Source of the DNA: Syntrophobacterales bacterium
GTDB lineage: Bacteria; Desulfobacterota; Desulfobaccia; Desulfobaccales; 0-14-0-80-60-11
NCBI GenBank assembly: GCA_037388025.1
Contig: JARRKO010000039.1
Location: 10,295-74,294 of the forward strand
Direction of reading: 5' to 3'
DNA length: 64,000 nucleotides
A program made the position numbers and the translations under genes. The notes under the pieces were generated by a model that saw nothing but the letters and a program-made list of their open reading frames with translations, was not told where the DNA came from and did no database searches. Positions 1,505 through 61,908 of the stretch are shown here, in pieces (position 1 is the stretch's first letter; every line of letters begins with the position of its first letter).

Positions 1505-4500
1505 ATGGCCAACAAACCTGAAGACCTCCATCTCGGCTTCACAGCTCGCCTGGTTAAAGTCTTTCTGCTGTCCAAGCTCCCCACGATTATCATCATCGTC
1601 TGCCTCCTGGCCGGCCTCATGGCCCTGCTCTTCACCCCCCGGGAAGAAGATCCCCAGATCAAGGTGCCCATGGTGGACATCCTCATCCAGTTTCCCGGGG
1701 CTTCCCCTGAAGAAGTGGAAAACCTGGTCGTCATCAATCTCGAGAAAAAACTCTGGGAGATGGAAGGCTTAAAAGATATCTATTCCCAGGCCAAAGACGG
1801 CTTCGCGGTGGTGACCGCCAGGTTCAAGGTGGGGGAGAACCTGGAGAGCAGCCTGTTCAAGGTCTATAACAAGGTCTTTTCCAACATTGACCAGGTGCCG
1901 TCGGGGGTGACGGGCTGGGTGGTCAAGCCCATGAACATCAACGACGTGCCCATCGTCACCTTGAGCCTGTACAGCAACTCCGCGGACGACTACCAGCTGC
2001 GGCGGGTGGCGGACGAGTTGCTGCACCGCCTGCAAAGCATCCCGGACACGGGCCGCACCTATGTGGTGGCGGGTCGGCGGCGCCAGGTGCGGGTGGTGGC
2101 CGACCCGGTCCGCCTCGCGGGCCATAACCTGGATTTGGCTGCGGTAGCGAAGGCGATTGAAGTGAGCAACGTCAATCTGCCGGCGGGCCATTTTTCCAAG
2201 CAGGACCGGGAATACCTGGTGCAGGCCGGGCCGTTCCTCAAGAGCTCCGACGAGGTCGCCGACCTGGTGGTGGGGGTGCATCAGGGCAAGCCGGTGTACC
2301 TGAAGGACGTGGCGGACGTCATTGACGGGCCGGAAGAGCCGGTAAAAATGAGCACCATTGCCTTCGGCCCCACCGAGGAACTGCCGCCGGGCTACGAGCG
2401 GGGAACGTTTTACCCGTCAGTGACCATGGCTCTGGCCAAACGGACCGGCACCAACGCCGTGACGGTGGCCGAAGGCATCCTGCACAAGCTGGACGAGCTG
2501 AAAAAGGAGGTCATCCCGCCCAACATCCGGGTGAAAGTAACCCGGGACTATGGCGAGACCGCCAACGAGAAGGTCAACGAACTCATCCGGGAACTTTTGA
2601 TTGCGGTGCTGTCCATCACCGTGCTCCTGACCCTGTTCCTGGGGTGGCGGGAGGCCCTGATTGTGGCCCTGGCGGTGCCCCTGACCCTGGCCATTACACT
2701 GTCCGGCAACATGATGTTCGGCTATACCATAAACCGGGTGACATTGTTTGCCCTGATCCTCTCCCTGGGGCTGCTGGTGGATGACCCCATTATTGACGTG
2801 GAGAACATCCACCGCCATTTCCAGCTGCGGGACCACCCGCCCCTGGAGGCTACCCTGGTGGCGGTGGATGAGGTCCGGGCCCCCACCATCCTGGCCACCT
2901 TCACGGTCATTATCAGCTTCATCCCCATGTACTTCGTTACCGGCATGATGGGGCCGTATATGCGGCCCATGCCGTTGAACGTGCCCCTGGCCATGCTCAT
3001 GAGCCTGGCCATCGCCTTCACGGTCACGCCCTGGGCCACCTATCATCTGTTGAAGAAGGAGTACGGCAAGGAGGCCAAGCCCTTTGTCCTGGAGGAGACC
3101 TGGATCTATCGAAAATATACCGGGATTATGAAACCTCTCCTGGACAGCCGCCGCAAAGGCCACCTGTTCCTGCTGGGGGTCGTGGTCTTGTTTCTCATAT
3201 CTGTGTCCCTGCCGGTCCTGAACCTGGTGCCCCTGAAGATGCTGCCGTTTGACAACAAAAACGATTTTCTGGTAGTGGCGGATATGCCCAACGACACTAC
3301 CCTGGAGGGCACCCAACAGGCCCTGGAGGCCTTCGGCCGGTACCTGACCACGGTCTCGGAGGTGGACAACGTGGTCAACTTCGCCGGGGTGAGCGCCCCC
3401 ATTGATTTTAACGGCTTGGTGCGCCACTACTACCTCATGCAGGGGCCGTGGGTAGGCCAGACCCGGGTCAACCTGGTGGAGAAGCAGAAGCGGTCTGCCG
3501 CGTCTCATGCCATCGCCCTGTGGATCAGGCCGGAAATGCAAAAGATCGCCCGGAAATACCAGGTGCGCATGAAGATCGTGGAAGTGCCCCCGGGGCCGCC
3601 GGATATGCAGACCCTGGTGGCGGAAGTCTACGGGCCCCCCGGGGCTTCCTATGCCAGCATTATCCAGGCCGCCCAGCAGGTAAAGGGATTCTTCCTGAAG
3701 ACGAAAAACGTGGTGGATGTGGACGCCTCGGTGGAGACCCCCGAACCCCGCTTCCGGTTCCTGGTGGATAAACAGAAAGCGGCCTTAAGCGGCTTGAGCC
3801 AAGCCCAGATCACCCAGGGCCTGGCCATGGCCGAAGCCGGCAAGGACGTGGGTCGGGTCCACCTGTCCAGGGAGCGCCTCCCCCTGGAGATCTTTCTCAG
3901 GGGCCCTCTGGCCTGGCGCTCCTCCATTCTGAGCCTGGGGCAGCTCTACTTCAAAAACCCGCAAGGGGCCATGGTGCCTTTGCAGGAACTGGGTCATTTC
4001 GACCTGGACCTGGCCCCCAAATCCATCGTACGGAAAAACCTGGAGCGGTTGGTATACGTCACCGGCAATACCGCGGGGTTGAGCCCGGTGAACGCCATCA
4101 TCGACCTGATGGAGGACACCGGGCGCAATCCCCTGCCCCCGGGCTACCGGGTCAATTATGCCGGCGAAGGGGAGTGGAAGATCACGGTGCAAGTCTTCCG
4201 GGATCTGGGTATTGCCTTCGCCGGGGCCCTGGTGGGTATCTATATCCTGCTGGTGCTTCAGACCTCGTCATACACCATGCCGCTGGTGATCATGGTGGCC
4301 ATTCCCCTGACCATGATAGGGGTGATGCCCGGGTTTGCCCTGCTAAACGCCCTCTTCACGACGCCTGTGAAGGGCTACGCGAACCCCATCTACTTCACCG
4401 CCACCGCCATGATCGGCATGATCGCGCTGGCCGGTATTGTGGTGCGCAATTCCATCATTCTCATCGACTTCATCCACCACCACCTGGATCGGGGCTATAG

Positions 4501-8081: not shown

Positions 8082-8474
8082 TTTTCTGTTTTCGGTTTTC
8101 GGTTCTCTGTAGTACTGTCTCAAAACCAAAAAAGCCTGGTGGCACAGGTGTCTTCACCTGTGCACTCTGGAATTTTCGAGCCGAGGCGTGATAATAGGCA
8201 ATTTTAGGGCGTGCCGTGCACGCCAAGCGGCCACGGGCCGCTAATAATGTTGGTGCGAATCTGGCCCCAAAATTTTATAAGGGCGGGTTTGAAACCCGCC
8301 CCTACAGGATCGCTACTGTTTTCGGTTTTCCCTAGCATTCTCCCATGAGCCGCCGCTATCGCAAAACCAGGAAAAGGTTGGTAGGGCGGGCGTCCCGCCC
8401 GCCATTTTGGAGCGCGGAGCGCACTCTAATATTCATTTGAACTCAAAACTCAAAACTCGAAACTTGAGCTTTTC
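8082..8474. repeat. Composite intergenic repeat cluster: heptad arrays plus at least five different GC-rich hairpins
   Basis: Heptads at 8082-8109 (TTTTCGG type), 8319-8332 and 8440-8467 (AACTCAA type). Hairpins: GCACAGGTG/CACCTGTGC 8142-8163; GGCGTGC/GCACGCC 8208-8224; GCGGCC/GGCCGC 8227-8241; palindrome GGGCGGGTTTGAAACCCGCCC 8281-8301; GGGCGGG-cgt-CCCGCCC 8384-8400. GGAGCGC occurs twice at 8409-8422. Confidence 0.85.
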
Positions 8475-8545: not shown

Positions 8546-9247
8546 TCAGGCCAGATCGACGAATCGGAGGAAATTACCCATAAAGCGGCGGAAGGTGTCT
8601 CCAATAACGACTTCCTTCTCCTGAGCCTGAGAGGGGAGAGCTTCGGGGTCCACCTCGGTCCCCGTCAGGGCCCACTCCCGGTCGTGGGCCAGCCAGGTGG
8701 CCGCGTCCCGGGCATCGGCATGGTTGTCGAACTGCAAGCCGACCACCCGGGGATTTTCTATGATTCCTATGGCTTCCACCGGAGCGGCTTTGGAAGTGAC
8801 CAGGATGTCCAGGCCATGGGGAACCGGCATGAACACTCCCTGGCCGTGCCACTTGAAAAGGGGGAAGTTCACCGGCAGGCCCTGGAAGGCAGGGTGCCTC
8901 TGTCCCCTGGGGGTGAGATGGCCGGTGGCGAAGCCCACGGACTTTTGGGCCATTGGCCCCACCCGGCAGCCCAGCACATGGGCCAGAAGCTGGTGCCCCA
9001 GACAAAACCCCAAATAGAACCGGCCGGAGGCTATGGTCTCCTTGATCATCGCCTTGAGGGGCTTAAGATAGGGGAATTCCTCCTCCTCATCCACGTTGGG
9101 AGAGCCCCCCAGGACCACAAGACCGGCATAGGGGTCCAGGGCCGGGAGCGGCTGGTGCCAGACCTCGGCTAGGTCAAAATCGACGCGGGCTGCGGCCAAA
9201 GCCGCCAGCAGGTGTCCACCCGGCCTTTCCCAATCCATATGTTGCAC
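8546..9247 (-). CDS. Type 1 glutamine amidotransferase (GATase1) domain protein
   Basis: 233 aa with nucleophile-elbow text GFCLGHQLL and GATase1-like layout. Confidence 0.8.
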   Translation of the reverse strand: MQHMDWERPGGHLLAALAAARVDFDLAEVWHQPLPALDPYAGLVVLGGSPNVDEEEEFPYLKPLKAMIKETIASGRFYLGFCLGHQLLAHVLGCRVGPMAQKSVGFATGHLTPRGQRHPAFQGLPVNFPLFKWHGQGVFMPVPHGLDILVTSKAAPVEAIGIIENPRVVGLQFDNHADARDAATWLAHDREWALTGTEVDPEALPSQAQEKEVVIGDTFRRFMGNFLRFVDLA

Positions 9248-9344
9248 AATAAGAATTTATTTTCCGGTCACAGACGCGCTCCTTTGGAAACATGATACAG
9301 TGGAATGTAACTAAGCCGGGTGTCGGCCCTGTTATCCCTAACTT

Positions 9345-10109
9345 ATGGAACTACTGGACCTTAACGGCCTCAGACTGTACCGCTTCCCTCGATTATCGGC
9401 TTTTCCCGAGGTCATCCATGGGGTGTTCACCCGGCAAGGCGGGGTGAGCCGTGGATCCTATCACAGCCTCAACGTCAGCCTGGCCGTGGGTGACCTGTCT
9501 TCCCAAGTGGAGGAAAACCTGCGGCGGGTGCAGCAGACCCTAGACCTGGACGGGCTCGTCAGTGCCACCCAGGTGCACGGCCTCAACGAGGCCGTTATTC
9601 AAGCAGGCTGTGCCACTCTTCCGGGAGAAATCCCGGAAGTGGACATCCTCATCACAGCCCAGCCCGATCTGGGCCTGGTCATCAAGCAAGCGGACTGTCA
9701 GGCCGTAATGTTTTACGATCCCGAGCACCGGGTGGTGGCCCAGACCCACTGCGGTTGGCGGGGCCAGGTCGGCGGCGTCCTGCGCGAGACCGTCAGGCGC
9801 CTTGCCTTCCACTTTCATTCCCGTCCCCAGGCCCTCCAGGCCGCCATCGGTCCGGGATTGGGCCCCTGCTGCGCCGAATTTCGCCACTACCGGCGGGAGT
9901 TTCCCCCTGAATTGTGGAAATACCAGGTGCGTCCGGGGTATTTCGACCTCTGGCAACTCAGCTTCGACCAGCTTGCGGCTGCGGGGATCAAGCCTGGCAA
10001 CATCGAAGTGGCCGCTCTCTGCACCCGCTGCCGGCCAACGGAGTTTTTCTCTTACCGCCGGGAAGGGGTCACAGGTCGCCAGGCCGCGGTGATTGCCCTC
10101 AGACCCTGA
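9345..10109 (+). CDS. pgeF: Peptidoglycan editing factor PgeF / YfiH (DUF152, laccase-domain) family
   Basis: 254 aa. Family text VHG...DILITAQP...ADCQAV...HCGWRG...CTRC. Confidence 0.85.
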   Translation: MELLDLNGLRLYRFPRLSAFPEVIHGVFTRQGGVSRGSYHSLNVSLAVGDLSSQVEENLRRVQQTLDLDGLVSATQVHGLNEAVIQAGCATLPGEIPEVDILITAQPDLGLVIKQADCQAVMFYDPEHRVVAQTHCGWRGQVGGVLRETVRRLAFHFHSRPQALQAAIGPGLGPCCAEFRHYRREFPPELWKYQVRPGYFDLWQLSFDQLAAAGIKPGNIEVAALCTRCRPTEFFSYRREGVTGRQAAVIALRP

Positions 10110-19626: not shown

Positions 19627-19678
19627 GGTAGCACGGGCTTCCAGCCCGTGTCGGCCCGGGCAAAATGCCCGGGCTACC
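19627..19678. repeat. Composite double-hairpin element (GGTAGC ... GCTACC)
   Basis: CACGGGCT-tcc-AGCCCGTG (19632-19650) and GCCCGGGCA-aaa-TGCCCGGGC (19654-19674) enclosed by GGTAGC/GCTACC. Degenerate relatives at about 19690-19713, 20557-20578 and 46059-46109. Confidence 0.8.
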
Positions 19679-19770
19679 TGATTTAAATAGGTAGTTCAGG
19701 TTTCCAGCCTGTGTTTAATGAAATATCCCGGCTGAGTTAATGAGCCTTTCATGAAAAGGAGGATTGCCCA

Positions 19771-20478
19771 ATGGGTCCCCCGGCTCTCCTGGATAAAACG
19801 TACAACACCATAATCACTAAACTGGTGGAAACCGGCCAAGCCCCTCATTATACCGAGATTGCCTCGGCATTGGGGGTCTCTATGGAAGAGGGCCGCAGGG
19901 CTCTCCATGAACTGATGTCCGCCGGTGTGCTGGGCATGTGGCTGTTTCCGGATACGGATTATATCAGCAGCTTTGCGCCCTTTAGCAACCTCCCCACCCA
20001 GTATCGCCTCACCATAGCGGGTGAACAAAAATGGTTCGCCCAGTGAGGTTTCGAGGCGCTGGCAGTATGCTGGCTTTTTCCCGGCAAACCAGTGCAGATC
20101 ACCGCTCCTTGCCTTGATTGTGGCTTACCGCTGCAGGTGGAGATGCAAGACGGCCGGGTCATAACCACCACTCCGGAGGGCATCATTGCTTATGTGGCCA
20201 TCCCCTTCTCCCGATGGCTGGAGCGGCTGCCCCATGCCTGAAGCACCATGAATCTCTTCCGGTCGGAAGAGCATATCCGGAACTGGGCTCAATTTGATCC
20301 CGCCACCGAGGAAGGCATTCTGCCACTGGCAGACCTGGTGAAGATATTTTCCGGCAATTTTTTCCGCCAACGGCTGGACCCGGATTACGCGTCCCAGAGT
20401 AAACAATACCTGGGTGAATTTCTGGCAGAGATCGCGGCAGTTGCCAAAACGCGGCCTTTTTGGCGACTAAGGCCATAA
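19771..20478 (+). CDS. MerB-family (alkylmercury/organomercurial lyase-like) protein, predicted selenoprotein with two in-frame UGA codons (20044-20046, 20239-20241)
   Basis: Track ORFs 19771-20046 and 20248-20478 and the unlisted stretch between them share one frame, interrupted only by two TGA codons. AAGGAGG SD lies 8 nt before 19771; there is none before 20248. Merged 235-aa product: wHTH N-terminus, WFAQ-U-GFEAL (compare MerB YAWC96ALD99TL) and PHA-U-STMNLFRS..W (compare SFC159CHVHFFAS..W). Hairpins follow both TGAs. Confidence 0.6.
20058..20074 (+). promoter_or_regulatory. SECIS-like hairpin 1 (moderate)
   Basis: GCUGGC-AGUAU-GCUGGC: 6 bp including two G-U pairs. Begins 11 nt after UGA 20044-20046. 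The loop contains GU. Confidence 0.4.
20254..20271 (+). promoter_or_regulatory. SECIS-like hairpin 2 (strong)
   Basis: CUCUUCC-GGUC-GGAAGAG: perfect 7-bp stem with a GGUC tetraloop. Begins 12 nt after UGA 20239-20241. Confidence 0.65.
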
Positions 20479-20636
20479 TGAGGGTCAGGAGACTATGTGG
20501 AAAAATCGAGGGTGGAGAACCGTTCTTGTAACACATCCACATCCCATCCCCACCCCGGTAGCGCGGGCTTCCAACCTGATTACTATCGAATCAAAATATT
20601 GTGTTAGCACCGTCAACCAATAAAACTTTCTAAATT

Positions 20637-46058: not shown

Positions 46059-46109
46059 GGGAGCACAGGCTTCCAGCCTATGCCACACAGGCAAGATGCC
46101 TGTGCTCCC
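46059..46109. repeat. GC-rich hairpin element (GGGAGCACAGGC ... GCCTGTGCTCCC)
   Basis: 12-bp outer inverted repeat. The inner part resembles the CACGGGCT-tcc-AGCCCGTG family and includes CACAGGCA-aga-TGCCTGTG. Confidence 0.8.
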
Positions 46110-52455: not shown

Positions 52456-52971
52456 ATGGGCATCGAAGAAAAACTGGGCTACAACGTCCTGACCACAACC
52501 CTCGAGAAGTTAGTGGACTGGGGGAGAAAAAGCAGCCTCTGGCCCTGTACCTTCGGGCTGGCTTGCTGCGCCATTGAGATGATCGTCACCGCGGCCAACC
52601 GTTGGGACATCGCCCGCTTCGGCATGGAAGCCTTTCGGGCCAGCCCTCGGCAGGCCGACCTCATGATTGTGGCCGGCACGGTCTGTAAAAAAATGATGCC
52701 CGCCATCGAACGCATTTATGAGCAGATGACCGAACCCAAGTGGGTCATCGCCATGGGGGCCTGCGCTTCTTCCGGGGGTATTTTTGATTCTTACTCGGTG
52801 GTCCAGGGGATTGACCTCTACCTGCCGGTGGACGTCTATATCCCCGGGTGCCCGCCCCGGCCGGAAGGTCTGCTCTATGGCATCCTGAAACTTCACGAGA
52901 AAATCTTGAAGGATCCCTTCTTAACTCAACAATACCGGGAAAAGCTGGCAGCCCGGCAGGAGGCGGCCTGA
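52456..52971 (+). CDS. nuoB: NADH-quinone oxidoreductase subunit B
   Basis: [15 protein letters not shown] and PGCPP motifs. Confidence 0.93.
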
Positions 52972-53429
52972 TGCACGTCGCGGTGGATCTCCTTAAAAAG
53001 CAGTTTCCGTCCGAAATCGTGGAGGTGGTGGAACATCGGGGGGACACCACCGTCGTCGTCAAGCCCGGTCGCATCCGGGATATTTGCCGGTTTCTCCGGG
53101 ATGATGAAACCGTGTCTTTCAAATATCTGTCGATGATTGCCGGGTTGGACTACGCGCCGCAAAGCCCCCGGTTTGCGGTGGCCTATAACTTGTATTCCCA
53201 TAAAAACCACGACCGCCTGACCTTGAAAGTATTTCTGGAGAGCGACACCGCGCCGACCATCGACTCGGTGGTCCCGGTGTGGTCCACCGCGGACTGGCAC
53301 GAACGGGAAGCCTTTGACCTCATGGGTATCAAGTTCAGAGGTCACCCCCAGTTGAAACGCATTCTGATGCCGGCGGACTGGAAGGGCTATCCTTTGAGGA
53401 AAGAATACCCCCAACGGGGGAGTGATTAG
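52971..53429 (+). CDS. nuoC: NADH-quinone oxidoreductase subunit C
   Basis: Start at MHVAVDLL overlapping the nuoB stop (TGATG). ERE.FD..G..F.GHP text. Confidence 0.88.
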   Translation: MHVAVDLLKKQFPSEIVEVVEHRGDTTVVVKPGRIRDICRFLRDDETVSFKYLSMIAGLDYAPQSPRFAVAYNLYSHKNHDRLTLKVFLESDTAPTIDSVVPVWSTADWHEREAFDLMGIKFRGHPQLKRILMPADWKGYPLRKEYPQRGSD

Positions 53430-53526
53430 CAGTCAGCAGCCAGTAATCAGTATTGGGATGGTTTAGAGAGTTAGTCAAAATTTTTTCATCAACGAATAAG
53501 TCTTGTAGCTCATAGCTCATAGCTTT
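53424..53526. repeat. Heptad arrays in the nuoC-nuoD spacer
   Basis: gattagc agtcagc agccagt aatcagt (53424-53451) and tagctca tagctca tagcttt (53506-53526). Confidence 0.8.
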
Positions 53527-53540
53527 CTCAAGGAACTTCA

Positions 53541-54734
53541 ATGGAACAGGTTAAACCCATCCCCCAAACGGAAATCATGGTCCTGAACGTGGGCCCCCAG
53601 CACCCCAGCACCCACGGTGTTCTCCGGGTGTTGGTGGAGCTGGACGGCGAGGTCATGGTCAGGGCTGAACCGGATATCGGCTATCTCCACCGCGGCATTG
53701 AGAAGCTGTGCGAAAACCGCACCTACCACAAGTGCCTGCCCCTCATGAACCGGGTGGATTATTTGGCCGGTGAGGTGAATAACTTCGGCTTCTGCCTGGC
53801 GGTGGAAAAGCTGCTCGGCATCGAGGTGCCCAAGCGGGCTCAGTACATCCGGGTGATCATGGCCGAATTCACCCGCATCGCCTCCCACATCTTCTGGCTG
53901 GGCACCCATGCCCACGACCTGGGAGCCATGACGCCATTGTTTTACGGTTTCCGTGAACGGGAAAAGATCATGGACCTGTGCGAAATGGTCTCCGGCGCCC
54001 GCATGTTTCCCCTTTATTTCCGCATCGGGGGCCTGGCCGCGGATCTACCCGAGGGCTTTTTGGCCAAGGCCATGGAATTCGTCAAAGAATTCCCGGACAA
54101 GTGGAAGGACTACGACAACCTGCTCACCAAGAATGAAATCTGGAAGGAACGCACCATCGGGGTGGGCGTCATGACCGCGGATGAGGCCCTGGATTGGGGC
54201 TGGTCCGGCCCCATGGCCCGGGGTTCGGGCGTCGATTGGGACCTGCGCCGGGATAACCCCTATTCCAGTTATGAAGACTTTGACTTTGTAGTACCCCTGG
54301 GCACGAAAGAAGGGGACACCTACTCCCGCTACCTGGTGCGCATGCAGGAGATGCTGCAGAGCAACCGCATCCTGCGCCAGGCCCTGGAAAAGCTGCCTGA
54401 GGGCGATATCAAGGTGGACGACCCCCGGGTAAGTCTTCCCCCGAAGGACAAGGTTTACAGCGATATCGCCGCGCTCATCAGCCATTTTAAGCTTATCCAG
54501 GAGGGTATCAAACCTCCGACCGGCGAAATCTACCAGGCCATCGAAGCTCCCAAGGGGGAACTGGGCTTTTACCTGATCAGCAACGGCACGGGCCAGCCTT
54601 TCCGGGTGAAGATCAGGGCGCCTTCCTTCGTGGTGCTGAATTCGTTGGGGAAATTGTCGGAGGGGCGCCTCTTGGCCGACCTCATCGCGCTCATCGGCAC
54701 CATGGACATCGTGCTGGCGGATGTGGATAGGTAG
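53541..54734 (+). CDS. nuoD: NADH-quinone oxidoreductase subunit D
   Basis: 397 aa. GPQHPSTHGVLR and RIRAPSF-like (VKIRAPSF) motifs. Confidence 0.93.
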   Translation: MEQVKPIPQTEIMVLNVGPQHPSTHGVLRVLVELDGEVMVRAEPDIGYLHRGIEKLCENRTYHKCLPLMNRVDYLAGEVNNFGFCLAVEKLLGIEVPKRAQYIRVIMAEFTRIASHIFWLGTHAHDLGAMTPLFYGFREREKIMDLCEMVSGARMFPLYFRIGGLAADLPEGFLAKAMEFVKEFPDKWKDYDNLLTKNEIWKERTIGVGVMTADEALDWGWSGPMARGSGVDWDLRRDNPYSSYEDFDFVVPLGTKEGDTYSRYLVRMQEMLQSNRILRQALEKLPEGDIKVDDPRVSLPPKDKVYSDIAALISHFKLIQEGIKPPTGEIYQAIEAPKGELGFYLISNGTGQPFRVKIRAPSFVVLNSLGKLSEGRLLADLIALIGTMDIVLADVDR

Positions 54735-54753
54735 GGCGGGCGTCCCGCCCGCC
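54730..54753. repeat. 24-nt hairpin element identical to 8380-8403
   Basis: GGTAGGGCGGGCGTCCCGCCCGCC is a perfect match at both loci. Here it starts within the last codons and stop of nuoD. Confidence 0.9.
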
Positions 54754-54756
54754 GGG

Positions 54757-54853
54757 TTTTCGGTTTTCGGTAAAGAGACTCGGGAGGAAAGCTGATAGCT
54801 GACTGATAACTGCTGAGCACTGACAGCTGACAGCTGATAGCCGATAGCTCAAA
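54757..54853. repeat. Heptad arrays in the nuoD-nuoG spacer (TTTTCGG x2, then 9 units of GCTGATA type)
   Basis: ttttcgg ttttcgg (54757-54770); gctgata gctgact gataact gctgagc actgaca gctgaca gctgata gccgata gctcaaa (54791-54853). Confidence 0.9.
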
Positions 54854-54876
54854 GGCAATCAATACAGGAAAGAACT

Positions 54877-57525
54877 ATGGTAAACCTCACCATCGACGGC
54901 CGGGCCATTCAAGCGGAGCCAGGGAAAACCATCTTAGAGGTCGCCCAAGAGAACGGCATTTTCATTCCCTACCTCTGCTACCATCCGGCCCTGAAGCCCA
55001 TCGGTTCCTGCCGCATCTGCGTGGTGGAAGTAACCCCCGGACCGCCCCGACCCCTCCCCGCCTGCGCCACCTATGTGGCCGAAGGTCAGGAGGTGGTCAC
55101 CAACTCAGAGCGGGTCCAGGCCATCCGCCAAGAGCTGATGAAGCTAGTCCTCATCAACCATGCCCTGGAATGCCCCATCTGTGACAAGGGCGGCGAATGC
55201 GAACTTCAGGATCTCACCCACGCCCTGGGCATCGGCGAAGTAGATTATGAAGCCATCAAGCTGCCCCCCAACATCGACTATGCCTCCCGCCTCATCGAGC
55301 GCCACCCAGACCGCTGCGTCACCTGCGGCCGCTGTGTGCGCATTTGCCGGGACCACGTGGGGGCCATGGCCATTAACTTCATGGACCGGGGCTATTTCAC
55401 CGAGTTGGGGTCGGGGCTGGTGCCCCTGGACTGCGAGTTCTGCGGATCCTGCGTGGACATTTGCCCGGTGGGGGCCCTCATCAACACGGTCTTTAAGTAC
55501 AGGGCCCGGGCCTGGGAAGGAGAGAAGACCGAGATGGTCTGTTCCTTCTGCGGCGGCGGCTGCACTTACTCCGTGCACACGGTGGACAACCGTATCCTGC
55601 GGGTGGTGAACGAAGACACCGTGGTCCTGTGCGGTCGGGGCCGTTTCGGCTTCCCCGTGGTGGAATCCGAGGACCGTCTTAAGACCCCTCTCATTAAAGA
55701 GAATGGCGATTTCCGGGAGGCCACCTGGGATGAAGCCATGGATTTCGCGGCCTCGCGCCTCCAGGAGATTATGGACGAAGCGGGCGCGGGCGCAGTATAT
55801 GGCGTGGGTTCTCCCCGGGCCACCAACGAGGCCAATTACCTCTTCCAGAAACTTTTCCGGTCAGTGCTGGGCACCAACAACCTGGACAACCCGGCCCGGC
55901 TCCACTATCTCAAGGCCGTCAGCGCGCTGGCCCAGGTCTTCGGCTGGCCGCAGCTTGCCAAGCTCGAAGGCCCCAAGGCCAAGTCCGAGCCTTATCACTC
56001 GTCGTTCAACATCACCGAGGGGTCCGAGGGCAGCGGCTTCAGCTCTGTCCTGGGAACCTTGAGTGAACTTCCCAAGGCTGACCTGGCCCTGGTGATCGGC
56101 ACCGACCTCACCCCGGAAATGCCACCCCTGGGGTGGGCCCTGATGGCGGCCCGGCAAAACGAGGCTTTCAAGCTCATCGTGGCCAACCCCCGCCAGACCA
56201 AGTTCGACCGCTACGCCGATCTCAGTCTGCGCTATAAGCCCGGGGCCGAACGGATGGTCATTGCCGGCCTGATCAAAGCCCTGTTGGGGGCGAATCCCGA
56301 GCTGGCCCCGGCCATCCAGGCCAAGGGGTGGGAGGATTTTCAGGAGATCCCCAAGAAATACGGCCCCAAGGAGTGGGCCACCCGCTCCGGGCTGGAAGAA
56401 TTCGCTCCCTTTGAAGAAGCCGCGCAGCTCCTGCTCCAGGCCCAGTCCCCGGCCATCATCTTCGGCACCGAGCTTCTGGGGCAGGATAAAGGCGATCAGA
56501 CCGCCCTGGCCCTGGCCGACCTTTTTCTCATCATCGGCCGGCCTGACAGTCCGGGCAGCAAACTGTATCCCATTGCGGAGAAGGCCAACACCCGAGGCGC
56601 CTGTGAACTGGGCGTCCTCCCCGACCGGCTGCCCGGGTATCTGCCCCTCAACGCCGACAATGCCGCGGCTTTCTTCGGCAGCAAGCCCCCGGTTTCCGAG
56701 CCCGGCCCCACACTGCTAGAGGCCCTGGACCTTCTGGAGCAGGGTGACCCCGCCGCGCCCCAGGCCATCTATGCCCTGGGCGGCGACCTGCTGCGCTGGC
56801 TGCCCAACCGGTCCCGCACGCAAAAGCTGTTGAAAAAGCTTAAGTTCCTGGTGGTGCAGGATGCCTTCCTCACCGACACCGCCAAGCTGGCCGACGTGGT
56901 TTTGCCGGTGGCGGTGCACGCCGAGCAGGAAGGCACCTACCTCAGCAGCGGCGGGCAGTTGGGCGTTTTGGCCCGAGCCCTGAACGGCAACGGCGTGCGC
57001 CCCGACTGGCAAATCATTTGCGATCTGGCCACCCGGCTGGGCTTGCGCATGTCCTATCGCAACCCGGCCCACATCTTCCAGGAACTCTCCAGTCTTATGC
57101 CCTCCTGGGCTGGTCTGGCCCCCAAGCTGGCCCTACCCTGCCCCGCGGTGCAAGCCACCGTTTCTGGTGAGTTCCAACCCTTTGATGTGGACATCAGCCT
57201 GCCGGGACGGCGGCCCCTAGCATTGATTATCGGCAAATCCCTGCAACACTCCGGCTCCTTTACCACCCACGCGCCGGTCGGCACCCTCCAGGTAACCCCG
57301 GGGGCAACCCTGCGGCTCAATCCTGAAGATGCGGCCGGCCTGGAACTCGAGCCGGGAGAAGAGGTGAAGGTGATTTCTTCCCACGGCGAAGTGGCGGCCA
57401 CGGTGCAATTGAGCCTGGACTTGCCGCCGGGAGTCGCTTTTCTGCCGGAGCATTTCGGCGAACCGGCGGCGAACAAGCTTACCCTCAATTCCAACTTGGT
57501 ACGGGTAACTATTCAGAAGGCATAA
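54877..57525 (+). CDS. nuoG: NADH-quinone oxidoreductase subunit G (molybdopterin-oxidoreductase-like)
   Basis: N-terminal 2Fe-2S and 4Fe-4S Cys motifs (CRICVVEV, HALECPICDKGGECELQ, CVTCGRCVRIC), then an MopB-like domain. 882 aa. Confidence 0.88.
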   Translation: MVNLTIDGRAIQAEPGKTILEVAQENGIFIPYLCYHPALKPIGSCRICVVEVTPGPPRPLPACATYVAEGQEVVTNSERVQAIRQELMKLVLINHALECPICDKGGECELQDLTHALGIGEVDYEAIKLPPNIDYASRLIERHPDRCVTCGRCVRICRDHVGAMAINFMDRGYFTELGSGLVPLDCEFCGSCVDICPVGALINTVFKYRARAWEGEKTEMVCSFCGGGCTYSVHTVDNRILRVVNEDTVVLCGRGRFGFPVVESEDRLKTPLIKENGDFREATWDEAMDFAASRLQEIMDEAGAGAVYGVGSPRATNEANYLFQKLFRSVLGTNNLDNPARLHYLKAVSALAQVFGWPQLAKLEGPKAKSEPYHSSFNITEGSEGSGFSSVLGTLSELPKADLALVIGTDLTPEMPPLGWALMAARQNEAFKLIVANPRQTKFDRYADLSLRYKPGAERMVIAGLIKALLGANPELAPAIQAKGWEDFQEIPKKYGPKEWATRSGLEEFAPFEEAAQLLLQAQSPAIIFGTELLGQDKGDQTALALADLFLIIGRPDSPGSKLYPIAEKANTRGACELGVLPDRLPGYLPLNADNAAAFFGSKPPVSEPGPTLLEALDLLEQGDPAAPQAIYALGGDLLRWLPNRSRTQKLLKKLKFLVVQDAFLTDTAKLADVVLPVAVHAEQEGTYLSSGGQLGVLARALNGNGVRPDWQIICDLATRLGLRMSYRNPAHIFQELSSLMPSWAGLAPKLALPCPAVQATVSGEFQPFDVDISLPGRRPLALIIGKSLQHSGSFTTHAPVGTLQVTPGATLRLNPEDAAGLELEPGEEVKVISSHGEVAATVQLSLDLPPGVAFLPEHFGEPAANKLTLNSNLVRVTIQKA

Positions 57526-57529
57526 GACG

Positions 57530-58555
57530 ATGAACCTGCTCCTGCTGATTATTCTCACGGCCCTGAAGATCACCGTAGTATTTGTGGTCTTCTTGACAGT
57601 GATCGCTTACACGGTGCTCATGGAGCGGAAAGTCCTGGGGTTCATCCAGCTCCGTTACGGCCCCAACCGGGTGGGACCCTGGGGACTGTTGCAACCGCTG
57701 GCCGACCTCCTCAAGCTCCTGTTTAAGGAGGACTTCACTCCGCCGGGTGCCAACCGGGTGCTATTCACTTTGGCCCCCATAATCACCGCAGTCACCGCGT
57801 TTCTGCCCTTTGCGGTGATTCCCTTCGCCAGTAACATCCTGCCCGCCAAGATCACTATTTATGGGCAAACCATCGATCTGACCGTGGCGAACCTGAATCA
57901 GGGCGTCATTGCCGACATGAACGTGGGACTCCTCTACGTCTTTGCCATGGGCTCCCTGGCGGTTTACGGCGCGGTGCTGGGTGGCTGGGCCTCCAACAAC
58001 AAGTACTCCCTGTTGGGGGGCCTGCGCCTTTCCGCCCAGATGGTAAGCTACGAGCTGGCCCTGGGCCTTTCTGTCATCGGCGTCCTCATGTTGGCCGGCT
58101 CCCTGAGCCTGGTGAAGATCGTGGAAGCCCAGAAGTCCATGTGGTTCATTGTCTATCAGCCCCTGGGTTTTTTACTGTTCCTCACCGCCGCGTTCGCCGA
58201 GTGCGCCCGCACTCCCTTTGACCTGATCGAGTGCGAAAACGAGCTGGTGGCCGGCTTTCAAACCGAATATAGCTCCATGAAATGGGCCTTGTTTATGCTG
58301 GGGGAATACTGCCATATCATTGTGGCCAGCGCGCTGACCGTTACCCTCTTTTTAGGCGGCTGGCAAGGCCCCTTTCTCCCGCCCATTGTTTGGTTCACCC
58401 TGAAGACTTTCGCTCTGGTGTTTTTCTTCATGTGGGTGCGGGGGACCTTTCCGCGGTTCCGCTTTGACCAGCTTATGCAACTGGGCTGGAAGGTGCTTCT
58501 CCCCCTGGCTCTGCTCAACATCGTGGCCACCGGAGTTGTGATGGTGATGCTGTAG
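57530..58555 (+). CDS. nuoH: NADH-quinone oxidoreductase subunit H
   Basis: 341 aa, polytopic. LMERKVLGFIQLRYGPNRVG signature. Confidence 0.93.
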   Translation: MNLLLLIILTALKITVVFVVFLTVIAYTVLMERKVLGFIQLRYGPNRVGPWGLLQPLADLLKLLFKEDFTPPGANRVLFTLAPIITAVTAFLPFAVIPFASNILPAKITIYGQTIDLTVANLNQGVIADMNVGLLYVFAMGSLAVYGAVLGGWASNNKYSLLGGLRLSAQMVSYELALGLSVIGVLMLAGSLSLVKIVEAQKSMWFIVYQPLGFLLFLTAAFAECARTPFDLIECENELVAGFQTEYSSMKWALFMLGEYCHIIVASALTVTLFLGGWQGPFLPPIVWFTLKTFALVFFFMWVRGTFPRFRFDQLMQLGWKVLLPLALLNIVATGVVMVML

Positions 58556-58573
58556 ATTTTAAGCTGCTAACAT

Positions 58574-58608
58574 CAACTTTGAACTTTGAACCTTGAACCT
58601 TGAACGAG
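58574..58608. repeat. Heptad array in the nuoH-nuoI spacer (GAACCTT type)
   Basis: caacttt gaacttt gaacctt gaacctt gaacgag. Shares a perfect 16-mer with 6890-6905. Confidence 0.85.
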
Positions 58609-58615
58609 GCCATAT

Positions 58616-59047
58616 ATGATTATCCCGCTGCTCAAAGGACTGGCCACCACCATCAGGCACTGCTTCAGCAAGCCTGTCACCCTCCAGTACCCTGAGGTCA
58701 AGCGGCCGGTTTATCCCCGTTTTCGGGGCCACCCGGAACTGGTGGTGAACGAGGATGGCAACCGCCGTTGCGTGGCCTGCACGCTGTGCAAGGTGGTCTG
58801 CCCCAGCAATGCCATCAAGGAGATTGTGCCGGCGGAAGGCGAGGAGCACGAGAAATACCCGGTTCAGTTCGTCATCGACCTGACCCGCTGTATTTTCTGC
58901 GGTTTTTGCCAGGAGGCCTGCCCCAAGGCGGCCATCAAACTGAATAACCTGTATGAGTTGGCCCAGTACCAGAAAAGCGTCCTCATCCTCGACATCGACC
59001 GGGCCACCCAGGCCAAGTCGGAAATGCGTATGACGGATTGGCTGTAA
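58616..59047 (+). CDS. nuoI: NADH-quinone oxidoreductase subunit I
   Basis: Two ferredoxin-type motifs (CVACTLCKVVCP, CIFCGFCQEACP). Confidence 0.9.
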   Translation: MIIPLLKGLATTIRHCFSKPVTLQYPEVKRPVYPRFRGHPELVVNEDGNRRCVACTLCKVVCPSNAIKEIVPAEGEEHEKYPVQFVIDLTRCIFCGFCQEACPKAAIKLNNLYELAQYQKSVLILDIDRATQAKSEMRMTDWL

Positions 59048-59051
59048 GGCC

Positions 59052-59131
59052 GGTTTTCGGTTTTCGGTAAAACATTGAATACAATCGCCATGAATAATCA
59101 GCAGAAAACAGCACACACTGAACAGAAAACT
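59052..59131. repeat. Heptad arrays in the nuoI-nuoJ spacer
   Basis: GGTTTTCGGTTTTCGGTAAA (59052-59071, identical to 54755-54774) and atcagca gaaaaca gcacaca ctgaaca gaaaact (59097-59131). Confidence 0.85.
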
Positions 59132-59152
59132 CCCCTCAGGGAGGCATAAGGG

Positions 59153-59650
59153 ATGGACTTAATTTTCTTTGGCCTGGCTGGAGTGGCGCTGATCTCCGGG
59201 GTGCTGGTGGTCTTCCAAACCCACCCCCTCAGGAGCGCGCTCTGGCTCATCGTGAATTTCTTTGCGGTGGCCGGCATCTATCTTCTGCTGCACGCCGAAT
59301 TCATCGCCGCCATCCAAATCATCGTTTACGCCGGGGCCATTATGGTCCTGTTCCTCTTTGTCATCATGCTGTTGAACCTGAGGCAACCGGAGGAGCCCAC
59401 CAAAGAGCCCTATTCGGCCCAGAAGGTGGTGGGGGTGGCCTTGAGCGCGGCCGCGGCCCTCTTTTTGTCCTACGGTCTGGCCCAGGTGAAAATGTCTCCC
59501 GCGGCCCCGGCCAAGGTCGGTTTGGGAAACACCGAGTCCATCGCCAAACTGCTCTTCACCGACTATCTGCTGCCCTTTGAGGTCACCAGTGTGCTGCTCT
59601 TGGTGGCCATCGTCGGCGCGGTGGTATTGTCCAAGAGCAAGTTGAAGTAA
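59153..59650 (+). CDS. nuoJ: NADH-quinone oxidoreductase subunit J
   Basis: 165 aa, polytopic, NuoJ-like text (AIQIIVYAGAIMVLFLFVIM). Confidence 0.88.
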   Translation: MDLIFFGLAGVALISGVLVVFQTHPLRSALWLIVNFFAVAGIYLLLHAEFIAAIQIIVYAGAIMVLFLFVIMLLNLRQPEEPTKEPYSAQKVVGVALSAAAALFLSYGLAQVKMSPAAPAKVGLGNTESIAKLLFTDYLLPFEVTSVLLLVAIVGAVVLSKSKLK

Positions 59651-59670
59651 GCTAACACGGAGAACCCGTA

Positions 59671-59976
59671 ATGGTTGTACCGCTGCCGTACATTTTAGGT
59701 CTTAGCGTGGCCCTGTTTGCCCTGGGGGCGATCGGGGTCCTCATCCGGCGCAACATCCTCATCATCCTTATGTGTCTGGAGATGATGCTGAACGCCGTTA
59801 ACCTGGCCTTCATCGGTTTTGCCGATTATTTCAAAGCCGTGGACGGCCAGATGTTCGTCTTTTTCGTCATGACCGTGGCTGCGGCTGAAGTGGCGGTGGG
59901 TCTGGCCCTGGTAGTGGCCATCTTCCGCCAGCGCGCCACCGTGAACGTCGACGACCTGAACATCCTCAAATGGTGA
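59671..59976 (+). CDS. nuoK: NADH-quinone oxidoreductase subunit K
   Basis: 101 aa, three TM helices, [10 protein letters not shown] and [10 protein letters not shown] text. Confidence 0.9.
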
Positions 59977-59986
59977 GGCTATCCCC

Positions 59987-61894
59987 ATGATCGAGTATGT
60001 CTGGCTCATCCCGGTCTTCCCCTTAATCGGCTTTATGATCAACGGCCTTATGGGGCATCGGCTCCCCAAGAACATCATAGGGACCCTCGGCTCGGCCATG
60101 GTGGGTCTGAGCTTCGCGCTCACGGTTTCCATCTTCCTCGAATACGTGAAGCTCCCGGTGGACGCCCGCCCGGTGGAAGTGACGGTTTACACCTGGATAG
60201 CTTCCGGCGGTTTCAAGGCCGTGGTAGCCTTCCTGGTGGATCCCCTGGCCCTCATTATGCTGTCGGTGGTCTCGGGTGTCAGCTTTATCATCCATATCTA
60301 CTCCGTGGGCTACATGCATGAAGATCCCGGCTTCCCCCGCTACTTCGCCTACCTCAATCTTTTCGTGTTTTTCATGCTGGTTCTGGTGGGAGCCAACAAC
60401 TTCCTCATGATGTTCGTAGGCTGGGAAGGCGTGGGGCTGTGCTCCTATCTCCTGATCGGCTTCTGGTATGAGAAGCAGTCCGCCAGCGACGCCGGCAAAA
60501 AGGCCTTCGTGGTCAACCGGATCGGCGACTTCGGCTTCCTCTTGGGCATCTTCCTTATCTTCTGGACCTTCAGCTCCGTCAACTTCCGGGAAGTCTTTAC
60601 CCTAGCTGCCAAGTATCCGGTGGGAAGCGGTGTCATCACCGCCATCACTTTGTTTCTCTTTGTGGGGGCCACCGGTAAATCAGCCCAGATTCCGCTCTAC
60701 ACCTGGCTGCCCGACGCCATGGAAGGCCCCACCCCGGTCAGCGCCTTGATTCACGCCGCCACCATGGTGACCGCCGGGGTTTATATGGTGGCCCGCTGCA
60801 GCGCCCTTTTCACCCTGGCGCCCATTTCCATGATGGTGGTGGCCATCATAGGCGCGGCCACGGCCATTTTCGCCGCTTCCATGGGCATGGCCCAGTTTGA
60901 CATCAAACGGGTCCTGGCTTACTCCACCGTGAGCCAGCTCGGCTATATGTTCCTGGCTTGCGGCGTGGGAGCCTTCACGGCCGGCATTTTCCATCTCATG
61001 ACCCACGCTTTTTTCAAGGCCCTCCTCTTTCTGGGAGCCGGCTCCATCAGCCACTCGCTCTCCGGAGAGCTGGATATGCGCAAAATGGGGGATATGCGCA
61101 AGCACATCCCCATAACCTATTGGACCTTCATGATCGCCACCCTGGCCATCTGCGGTATCTTCCCCTTCGCCGGCTTCTTCAGTAAAGACGAAATTCTTTT
61201 CCACTCCCTAGTGGACGGCCATATGATGTACTGGGGCATCGCCACAGCCGCGGCCTTTATCACGGCTTTTTACATGTTCCGGGCGGTGTTCATGGTGTTT
61301 TTCGGCGAATCCCGGGTTGAGCCCGAAGTGGCCCACCATGTCCACGAGTCGCCTCCGGTCATGACCATACCCCTCATGCTTCTGGCAGTGGGGTCGGCCT
61401 TCGGCGGCCTGGTGGGCATTCCCATTATCGAGGGCGGCCACGTCTTCAAAGAATTTTTGGCACCATCCATCATATATTCCGCAGGACACCACGTGGGTCA
61501 TTACTCCATCTCCTTTGAAGTGGGCATGATGATTTTATCCATGGCGGTGGCCTTTGCCGGCATATTTGTCGCCTACCGCATGTACATCCGCAAGCCCGAT
61601 CTGCCCGCCGTCCTGGCCAAAAAGTTCAGGGTGGCCTACGAGCTCGTCTTCAACAAGTACTACGTGGATGAGATCTACGACATGGCGGTGGTGGAGCCCG
61701 TCAAGGAAAGCTCCAACTTTCTGTGGACCGGGGTGGATGACAAGGTGGTGGACGGCGCAGTGAACGGGTCGGCGGGAGTCGTCGCCTGGCTGAGCGCCCA
61801 TATTCGCAAACTCGAAACCGGCTTCCTCCAGAACTATGCCCTGGCTATTGTCCTGGGAGTCGCCTTGATCGTCGGCTATCTCGTCGGGTTGTAA
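59987..61894 (+). CDS. nuoL: NADH-quinone oxidoreductase subunit L
   Basis: 635 aa antiporter-like subunit (WEGVGLCSYLLIGFW, SALIHAATMVTAGV). Confidence 0.93.
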   Translation: MIEYVWLIPVFPLIGFMINGLMGHRLPKNIIGTLGSAMVGLSFALTVSIFLEYVKLPVDARPVEVTVYTWIASGGFKAVVAFLVDPLALIMLSVVSGVSFIIHIYSVGYMHEDPGFPRYFAYLNLFVFFMLVLVGANNFLMMFVGWEGVGLCSYLLIGFWYEKQSASDAGKKAFVVNRIGDFGFLLGIFLIFWTFSSVNFREVFTLAAKYPVGSGVITAITLFLFVGATGKSAQIPLYTWLPDAMEGPTPVSALIHAATMVTAGVYMVARCSALFTLAPISMMVVAIIGAATAIFAASMGMAQFDIKRVLAYSTVSQLGYMFLACGVGAFTAGIFHLMTHAFFKALLFLGAGSISHSLSGELDMRKMGDMRKHIPITYWTFMIATLAICGIFPFAGFFSKDEILFHSLVDGHMMYWGIATAAAFITAFYMFRAVFMVFFGESRVEPEVAHHVHESPPVMTIPLMLLAVGSAFGGLVGIPIIEGGHVFKEFLAPSIIYSAGHHVGHYSISFEVGMMILSMAVAFAGIFVAYRMYIRKPDLPAVLAKKFRVAYELVFNKYYVDEIYDMAVVEPVKESSNFLWTGVDDKVVDGAVNGSAGVVAWLSAHIRKLETGFLQNYALAIVLGVALIVGYLVGL

Positions 61895-61908
61895 CCTAGG
61901 AGTTGCCC

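Follow-up and report, generated by a model that had tools for sequence, protein, structure and literature searches.

Does a small gene that is interrupted twice by in-frame UGA codons encode one protein carrying two selenocysteines, or is it what remains of a broken gene? The question is raised by positions 19771-20478 of a 64,000-nucleotide stretch of DNA (hereafter the window) from contig JARRKO010000039.1 of a Syntrophobacterales bacterium. A preliminary description, made from the letters of the sequence, had taken this locus for a MerB-like gene in which UGA codons replace both catalytic cysteines and are each followed by a hairpin. Our follow-up analysis points, with a probability of about 0.82, to one functional, intact MerB-fold gene in which both metal-ligand cysteines are encoded as selenocysteine (Sec), each UGA has its own selenocysteine insertion sequence (SECIS), and the product would be a bis-selenolate organometal(loid) lyase. 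That the locus is a real double-Sec gene appears very probable from the sequence comparisons set out below.

Reading frame, MerB fold and codon states

Translation of 19771-20478 bore out the proposal of one reading frame, giving 235 codons and a TAA stop with the TGA triplets at codons 92 and 157 as the sole interruptions (Table 1). The strong Shine-Dalgarno sequence likewise stands solely before the first piece, and inspection of the sequence upstream of the internal ATG 20248 found nothing resembling a ribosome-binding site.

For family scoring both UGA codons were read as Cys. The merged product matched the Pfam family PF03243 (MerB) with 74.3 bits against a cutoff of 27, residues 71-192 covering profile positions 1-120 of 126, and 475 database homologues were found. 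The NCBIfam equivalog cutoffs for MerB were missed (33 bits versus 193 for NF009710, 25.9 versus 200 for NF033555). A profile of the family compared with PDB sequences matched MerB2 (5C17, E = 1.8e-10) and also MerB (3F2G, 1S6L) and others. In the profile-to-PDB alignment UGA92 falls on Cys96 of MerB and on the equivalent Cys of MerB2, Glu95 on Asp99 and UGA157 on Cys159, in agreement with the preliminary description, which had placed the first UGA on Cys96 with an acidic residue three positions further on as the counterpart of Asp99, and the second UGA on Cys159. The canonical Cys96/Asp99/Cys159 set is not present as such, since the residues in register with it, Sec92/Glu95/Sec157, are chemical analogues and not the same residues. 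Across the family Glu95 is conserved to at least 90%. In the same alignment Cys114 falls on the structural Cys117 of MerB and Cys117 on a Thr of MerB.

As a structure model we used the natural Cys/Cys homologue P0038 (here and below P denotes database proteins and L related loci), which is 58% identical to the window protein. Its AlphaFold model had a predicted local distance difference test (pLDDT) score of 93.5 and a predicted template modelling (pTM) score of 0.88, and its top 11 Foldseek matches in the PDB were all MerB or MerB2 (E 1.2e-10 to 3.1e-7, template modelling (TM) score up to 0.69). The Pfam score, the PDB profile matches and the fold of the homologue model together uphold the MerB architecture that had been proposed for the merged product. 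The N-terminal helical domain belongs to this shared architecture, the structure alignments beginning at residues 15-21. Two features set the family apart, namely an invariant CLDC motif and, at the C-terminus, a helical tail of about 45 residues; Cys117 of the CLDC motif is specific to the two-Sec family.

Codon states at the two sites were compared over 83 loci, made up of 80 kept among 293 relatives (from a scan taking one genome per species) and three others; eight of the 83 lay outside the motif scan and were classed by inspection (seven Sec/Sec and one, L005, decaying). A constant distance of 65 codons separates the two sites, and the codon pair is TGA/TGA in 65 loci, TGC/TGA in 15, TGC/TGC in two and aberrant in one (L005). 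Taken singly, site 1 is TGA in 66/83 loci and TGC in 17/83, and site 2 is TGA in 80/83, TGC in two (L003 and L054) and GTA in the decaying L005. Cys occupies site 1 also in 67 database homologues and site 2 in the database proteins P0038, P0047, P0048 and P0079. A check of orthologues at the DNA level gave Sec/Sec for L001, Cys/Sec for L002 and Cys/Cys for L003. In the alignment with Cys homologues the Cys columns thus match both UGAs, and alternation between TGA and TGC among the orthologues is seen at both sites, both in line with the preliminary description.

The loci are spread over at least 8 phyla and dozens of anaerobic bacterial species. The carriers, mainly uncultured anaerobes, belong chiefly to the Thermodesulfobacteriota (Syntrophales, Syntrophobacterales, Desulfobaccales and Desulfobacterales) and Nitrospirota, with further carriers in Chloroflexota, Acidobacteriota and Actinomycetota; Cys/Sec forms occur in Burkholderiales, Alphaproteobacteria, Rokubacteria, Tectomicrobia and Nitrospinae. 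Comparison of the window gene with L001 and L006 gave more synonymous than non-synonymous codon changes in all three of the segments delimited by the UGAs, and residues that follow the UGAs (C114, C117, F163, R164 and S165) are kept invariant.

The exceptional locus L005 (10001-10711, from a Syntrophobacterales metagenome-assembled genome (MAG), 81% identical) has TAA in place of CAA at codon 23, the replacement E95Q and GTA in place of TGA at site 2. Both of its hairpins remain intact, and an assembly error is possible.

Hairpins downstream of the two UGA codons

Each UGA is followed by a hairpin where the preliminary description had drawn one, the stems starting 11 nt after UGA92 and 12 nt after UGA157 and the loops 17 and 19 nt after them, with minimum free energies (MFE) of -8.5 and -9.6 kcal/mol, respectively. 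The consensus for bacterial SECIS (bSECIS) elements consists of a loop of 3-9 nt, a stem of 4-16 bp with G in the first two loop positions, a distance of 16-37 nt from UGA to loop and an MFE of -7.5 kcal/mol or lower (PMC13188914). Hairpin 1 has a 5-nt loop with G at loop position 2 followed by U, a 6-bp stem and a distance of 17 nt, and hairpin 2 has a 4-nt loop with G at loop position 1, a 7-bp stem and a distance of 19 nt. The prediction of a SECIS at both UGAs is hence in accord with all four parts of the consensus. Like the Cys/Sec pairs at both sites and the orthologues with UGA, these downstream bSECIS elements are among the features by which bacterial selenoproteins are recognised (PMC13188914).

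Hairpin 2 is found at 74/74 TGA loci, with all seven pairs formed in 66 and six of the seven in the others, and its loop is GGUC in 73/74. Compensatory double changes occur in three of the seven pairs (13 cells), a level reached in 0/500 shuffles. The basal pair of the stem changes from C-G to U-A, the penultimate pair changes from C-G to U-A and so forces a replacement of Glu by Lys (L061, L065, L067, L074 and L080), and the loop-closing pair changes from C-G to A-U (L069 and L072). Overall 98.1% of cells are paired, compared with 44-60% when the partner column is slid. The hairpin is absent from the Cys/Cys loci L003 and L054.

Hairpin 1 shows all six pairs in 58/59 TGA loci as opposed to 5/17 TGC loci, and 99.7% of its alignment cells are paired. 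Its variation consists solely of G-U pairs becoming Watson-Crick pairs, once by way of a Leu to Pro replacement (L056, L057 and L059), and its loop is AGUAU in the window and GGUCU or GGUCA in many orthologues. The TGC loci that retain most or all of the hairpin (L002, L004, L024 and L035) are isolated tips within the Sec/Sec clade, L002 and L004 being sister to the window gene; as judged from the sequences, this pattern fits a recent replacement of Sec by Cys that would have left a fossil SECIS behind. Within both stems the third-codon positions are frozen, and immediately beyond the stems they vary freely. Neither hairpin survives where Cys has been in place for a long time, and the hairpins track the TGA state.

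A run of UUUUU lies directly 3' of hairpin 1, and a consensus scan marked 20058-20084 as terminator-like. The run comes from the Leu-Phe codons in the conserved WLFPG and probably just reflects what is encoded there; that hairpin 1 might act in attenuation whenever Sec insertion fails is speculation.

Table 1. Features of the predicted two-Sec gene (window coordinates)
Feature	Position	Strand	Remark
Complete coding sequence (CDS), predicted 235-residue MerB-family selenoprotein (Sec92, Sec157)	19771..20478	+	TAA stop at 20476-20478
Shine-Dalgarno AAGGAGG	19756..19762	+	8 nt upstream of ATG 19771; read from sequence
UGA codon 92, predicted to be read as selenocysteine	20044..20046	+	equivalent of MerB Cys96
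Glu95 codon GAG	20053..20055	+	equivalent of MerB proton donor Asp99
Predicted SECIS element 1, GCUGGC-AGUAU-GCUGGC	20058..20074	+	6 bp, two G-U pairs
CLDC motif (Cys114, Cys117)	20110..20121	+	invariant columns in two family alignments
UGA codon 157, predicted to be read as selenocysteine	20239..20241	+	equivalent of MerB Cys159
Predicted SECIS element 2, CUCUUCC-GGUC-GGAAGAG	20254..20271	+	7 perfect bp

Competing explanations and predicted function

The locus is represented in the databases in a form that bears on how it is to be read. Of the best 120 of the 475 database homologues, 51 run to full length and show Trp in both columns. Another 64, with Cys at site 1, break off exactly before site 2 (150-159 aa), and four have Cys at both sites. 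The contig of P0001 carries TGA at both sites and is not translated to P0001 under code 11. Gene calls on metagenome contigs (L001 at 268-984, P0001-P0027 and others) used UGA as Trp and so placed Trp at both catalytic positions, and other pipelines gave fragments of 91, 32-50 and 73-77 aa or a shortened 'alkylmercury lyase' of 155-156 aa. The pieces bear the public names 'hypothetical protein', 'alkylmercury lyase' and 'organomercurial lyase', and never selenoprotein. An exhaustive profile search returned 1375 cluster representatives at E <= 1e-3 and 466 at E <= 1e-10; many of these stop at profile position 90 or near 155, or start at 159, as would be expected of a gene fragmented by two UGAs.

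If the two UGAs marked a pseudogene, a former Cys/Cys merB-like gene would have suffered two nonsense mutations and the hairpins would be there by chance. Gene callers do split the locus into pieces of 91, 32-50 and 76 aa, the hairpins are energetically ordinary in isolation, and the relative L005 is truly decaying. However, the identical TGA pair recurs in register in 65/83 loci from several phyla, the window gene has no further stops or frameshifts, and conservation extends to its downstream segments, where residues stay invariant and synonymous changes prevail. Furthermore, the hairpins covary and follow the TGA state, and the decaying L005 bears lesions of another kind (TAA, E95Q and TGA to GTA). 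We consider a pseudogene extremely improbable, and the earlier view that the two UGAs are not decay is carried by the recurrence of TGA/TGA, by purifying selection after each UGA and by the covarying hairpins; disabled relatives, which the preliminary description had named as a sign of a pseudogene, are confined to L005 among the 83 loci. Reassignment of UGA to Trp or Gly (genetic codes 4/25), which gene calls from JGI imply, would account for the 51 full-length homologues with Trp at both columns, but code 11 does not yield these proteins from the DNA that encodes them, and the triplets concerned are TGA. TGA is an ordinary stop here because it ends 16 of the 47 confident genes in the window; moreover no other window gene requires TGA read-through, the homologues show Cys and not Trp or Gly at both columns, and the carriers fall in many phyla with the standard code, so this explanation is hardly credible.

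In a reading in which only UGA157 is decoded, UGA92 would mostly terminate translation to yield a 91-residue product, and hairpin 1 with its U-run would serve as a transcription attenuator. In its favour, Sec insertion is known to be inefficient, hairpin 1 is weak (6 bp with two G-U pairs), lacks double compensation and is followed at once by UUUUU with its terminator-like flag, and Sec is near-universal at site 2 while site 1 alternates more. Against this stand the full hairpin 1 in 58/59 TGA compared with 5/17 TGC loci, and its agreement with every bSECIS feature, including the loop G-U and the 17-nt spacing. In addition, the residues between the UGAs (CLDC included) are under purifying selection in TGA/TGA genomes, and a normal stop at codon 92 is unlikely because such selection would not then persist. 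On balance we regard this reading as very improbable. The remaining alternative, the chief rival as regards function, accepts both Sec residues and the MerB fold: the protein may not be a lyase, and may instead bind, traffic or sequester soft metals like NosL, or act as a diselenide/selenol redox protein, perhaps serviced by CLDC. It gains from the lack of any mer operon or pathway context found at the locus, from the invariant CxxC that is absent from MerB, from scores far under the cutoffs for true MerB equivalogs (33 versus 193 and 26 versus 200), from the view that MerB without MerA is physiologically problematic (PMC8261052), and from the copper protein NosL being the only other known sharer of the MerB fold (PMC10114901). 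It loses from the acid kept at the proton-donor position (Glu95, at least 90%) and from the Cys/acid/Cys constellation of MerB, which is preserved in register. Copper-binding variants of MerB have Ser, not an acid, at the Asp99 position, which also counts against it. A non-lyase function appears decidedly unlikely.

Under the two-Sec lyase reading, translation would start at ATG 19771 behind the strong ribosome-binding site, and at UGA92 and UGA157 the SECIS would recruit SelB with Sec-tRNA(Sec), so that selenocysteine would be inserted and termination avoided. By homology, Sec92 and Sec157 would occupy the metal-clamping positions of MerB, and Glu95 that of the proton donor. The two selenolates would hold a soft organometal(loid), for example methylmercury, between them, and its carbon-metal bond would be cleaved by protonolysis with a proton from Glu95. 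The chemistry of MerB itself employs two cysteine thiolates and an aspartate. Its residue roles, in which Cys96 and Cys159 bind the metal and Asp99 protonates the leaving carbon, are summarised in PMC8261052, and these three residues are regarded there as strictly conserved. Selenium compounds promote Hg-C cleavage, as in a selone-based mimic of the MerB active site, and selenoamino acids demethylate in a reaction ending in HgSe (PMC10114901). Anaerobic demethylation pathways are described as uncharacterised in reviews (PMC10114901). Cleavage of a carbon-metal bond by the window protein has a little less than an even chance.

A number of results weigh against the two-Sec lyase reading. In shuffle controls the folding energies were unremarkable (z = +0.75 for hairpin 1 and -1.35 for hairpin 2), an Rfam scan of both hairpins with E up to 10 matched no model, and the covariation test found no double-sided compensatory change in hairpin 1. 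The case for the SECIS elements rests on comparative data because single-sequence folding is not significant against the shuffles. The earlier claim that the arrangement lies beyond chance accordingly does not stand on the window sequence alone, but does stand on the comparison, with TGA/TGA in register in 65/83 loci and hairpins that covary with TGA. Sec decoding in the source genome is assumed: ARAGORN, Rfam and tblastn with E. coli SelA, SelB and SelD did not find selA, selB, selC or selD in the window, and the same tblastn queries had no match in 1.27 Mb of related loci. With regard to function, no mer or other metal-related gene that might hint at a substrate was found nearby, the predicted active-site geometry derives from the alignment and from the model of a 58%-identical homologue, and a bis-selenolate would bind Hg(II) extremely tightly, which makes turnover on mercury questionable.

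The window contains one tRNA (Asp). ARAGORN found one tRNA-Sec in 60 loci, in the Alphaproteobacteria MAG locus L080 (12829-12920, minus strand; Rfam RF01852, 71.4 bits), about 9 kb downstream of the Cys/Sec orthologue, where it adjoins genes for a LysR-family regulator and a lysine-decarboxylase-like (LOG/SLOG) protein. Two further ARAGORN predictions, a 'tRNA-Stop' in L050 whose anticodon is UUA (4040-4115, minus strand) and a 93-nt 'tRNA-Gly' in L077 (12588-12680, plus strand), scored under the Rfam tRNA gathering score and are probably false positives. Thermodesulfobacteriota rank among the most selenoprotein-rich bacteria (PMC13188914).

Genomic context and comparison with known systems

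The gene has hisB on one side and genes for an FRG/HepT-like protein, a metallophosphoesterase and HflX on the other. An adjacent 638-aa protein also occurs in a near-identical MAG, GCA_037388145.1, on contig JARRKN010000023.1. Neighbours corresponding to merA, merR, merT and merP were not found at the locus, nor was the nine-gene SAO neighbourhood (saoTECXLBPAD), and clustering of the neighbours at 76 loci gave no conserved partner beyond close relatives. The gene stands alone, in neither a mer operon nor an SAO locus.

Some further features of the region were noted. A hairpin-forming repeat, GGTAGCRCGGGCTTCCARCC, brackets the gene in direct orientation (19627-19646 and 20557-20576), and looser copies lie at about 19689 and at 46059-46078, 8380-8399 and 54730-54749; five matches compare with 0.04 expected in the window, and the repeat may be an intergenic element of the repetitive extragenic palindromic (REP) type. 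In the syntenic ENA contig L002, several genes that the window has in one piece are broken into two at 3783-4331 and 9246-9830, namely hisB/IGPD (93 + 96 aa) and a metallo-beta-lactamase-fold gene (85 + 48 aa), which looks like assembly indel errors. When the window was searched for further selenoprotein genes, two coding-like in-frame TGAs came up (48979 and 59974); both proved to be ordinary gene ends followed by the next start codon. A NADH:quinone oxidoreductase (nuo-like) cluster was recognised by eye from the translations at 52456-63444; TGA 59974 is the stop of its nuoK-like gene, and the next gene starts at 59987.

No enzyme other than MerB is known to cleave the carbon-mercury bond of methylmercury. 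The family described here would be a natural version of MerB with both thiolates exchanged for selenolates, conserved across several phyla of anaerobes, widespread in habitats where mercury is methylated, and placed outside mer operons. It would also offer a rare example of two Sec residues with separate SECIS elements that are predicted to converge on one catalytic metal site, and its natural Sec/Sec, Cys/Sec and Cys/Cys forms are available for comparison. Broken up in databases into pieces of 91, about 50 and 76 aa or truncated at 155 aa, the family is unlikely to have been recognised as full-length MerB in merB gene surveys. The annotation error is a systematic one, in which the gene is either split or given Trp at both catalytic positions under code 4/25.

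It is possible, if unlikely, that the protein is a mer-independent bis-selenolate demethylase acting in anoxic soils, peat and sediments on methylmercury or some other organometal(loid), missed by all merB surveys because the gene is stored as fragments or cut at a UGA. Were this so, the enzyme would share guilds with mercury methylators (Syntrophales, Desulfobacterales, Nitrospirota and Chloroflexota), the affinity of selenium would suit the picomolar to nanomolar concentrations of natural organomercury, and the selenium and mercury cycles would be linked via one enzyme.

Compared with MerB (EC 4.99.1.2; PDB 3F0O, 3F0P, 1S6L) and MerB2 (5C17), the window protein shares the overall fold including the N-terminal helical domain, has Sec92/Glu95/Sec157 in register with Cys96/Asp99/Cys159 and has Cys114 as the equivalent of structural Cys117. 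It differs in that identity is only about 20%, both thiol ligands would be selenols and the vicinal Cys160 is absent. MerB occurs on plasmids of aerobes with mer neighbours, whereas the window family occurs mainly in uncultured anaerobes without them.

The predicted SECIS elements may be compared with that of fdhF from E. coli K-12, in which UGA140 is followed at 11 nt by the upper stem and at 18 nt by the apical loop, GGUC, so that the GGUC loop and 11-nt spacing named in the preliminary description were correct. As in fdhF, the hairpins lie within the CDS just after the UGA, the stems starting after 11 and 12 nt and the loops after 17 and 19 nt, with GGUC in loop 2. Unlike fdhF, the window elements are shorter (6-7 bp), have neither the bulged U nor the lower stem, and occur as two in one small gene.

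The preliminary description had left open whether a Sec-containing relative of MerB was already on record. For a single Sec it was: SaoL, a MerB-like selenoprotein, was described in 2022 (NCBIfam NF040728; Haft and Gwadz, bioRxiv 10.1101/2022.07.06.499078). The two proteins share the MerB fold (PF03243), a Sec at the Cys159 position, an acid at the Asp99 position and an occurrence in anaerobes; SaoL, too, is usually cut at the UGA in databases, and its organometal substrate is probable but unproven. However, the single Sec of SaoL lies in a CU dipeptide and its Cys96 position is still Cys, whereas in the window protein both positions would be Sec and the second stands in A-U-S, with Ala preceding Sec157 (H-A-U-S) where SaoL has Cys. 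The window protein scores 42.2 bits against the SaoL model NF040728, whose cutoff is 140. SaoL belongs to a conserved nine-gene SAO operon with genes for an ATP-binding cassette (ABC) transporter and efflux, in contrast to the solitary window gene, and the window family is further set apart by CLDC, by the helical tail of about 45 residues and by Glu rather than Asp as the acid.

A description of a two-Sec relative of MerB was not found in the searchable literature, whose coverage leaves out most subscription journals, so that a prior report is possible. Reviews of 2022 and 2026 list the one-Sec SaoL as the only MerB-type entry (PMC9312934; PMC13188914), and in the 2026 census of 119 prokaryotic selenoprotein families 'the vast majority' are single-Sec (PMC13188914). 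With the small subset of multi-Sec proteins in that census (PMC13188914) the window protein would share more than one UGA-encoded Sec per polypeptide; it differs in that its Sec residues lie 65 residues apart, have a SECIS each and are both predicted to bind one and the same metal atom. The same census treats an identical domain architecture with a different Sec position as a distinct subfamily (PMC13188914), and the window family, which shares its architecture with SaoL and differs in Sec position, would by this measure be a separate one. Collectively, the comparison identifies a distinct, stand-alone two-Sec subfamily that is absent from the 2026 census, within a concept, the MerB-like selenoprotein, that is itself known through SaoL.

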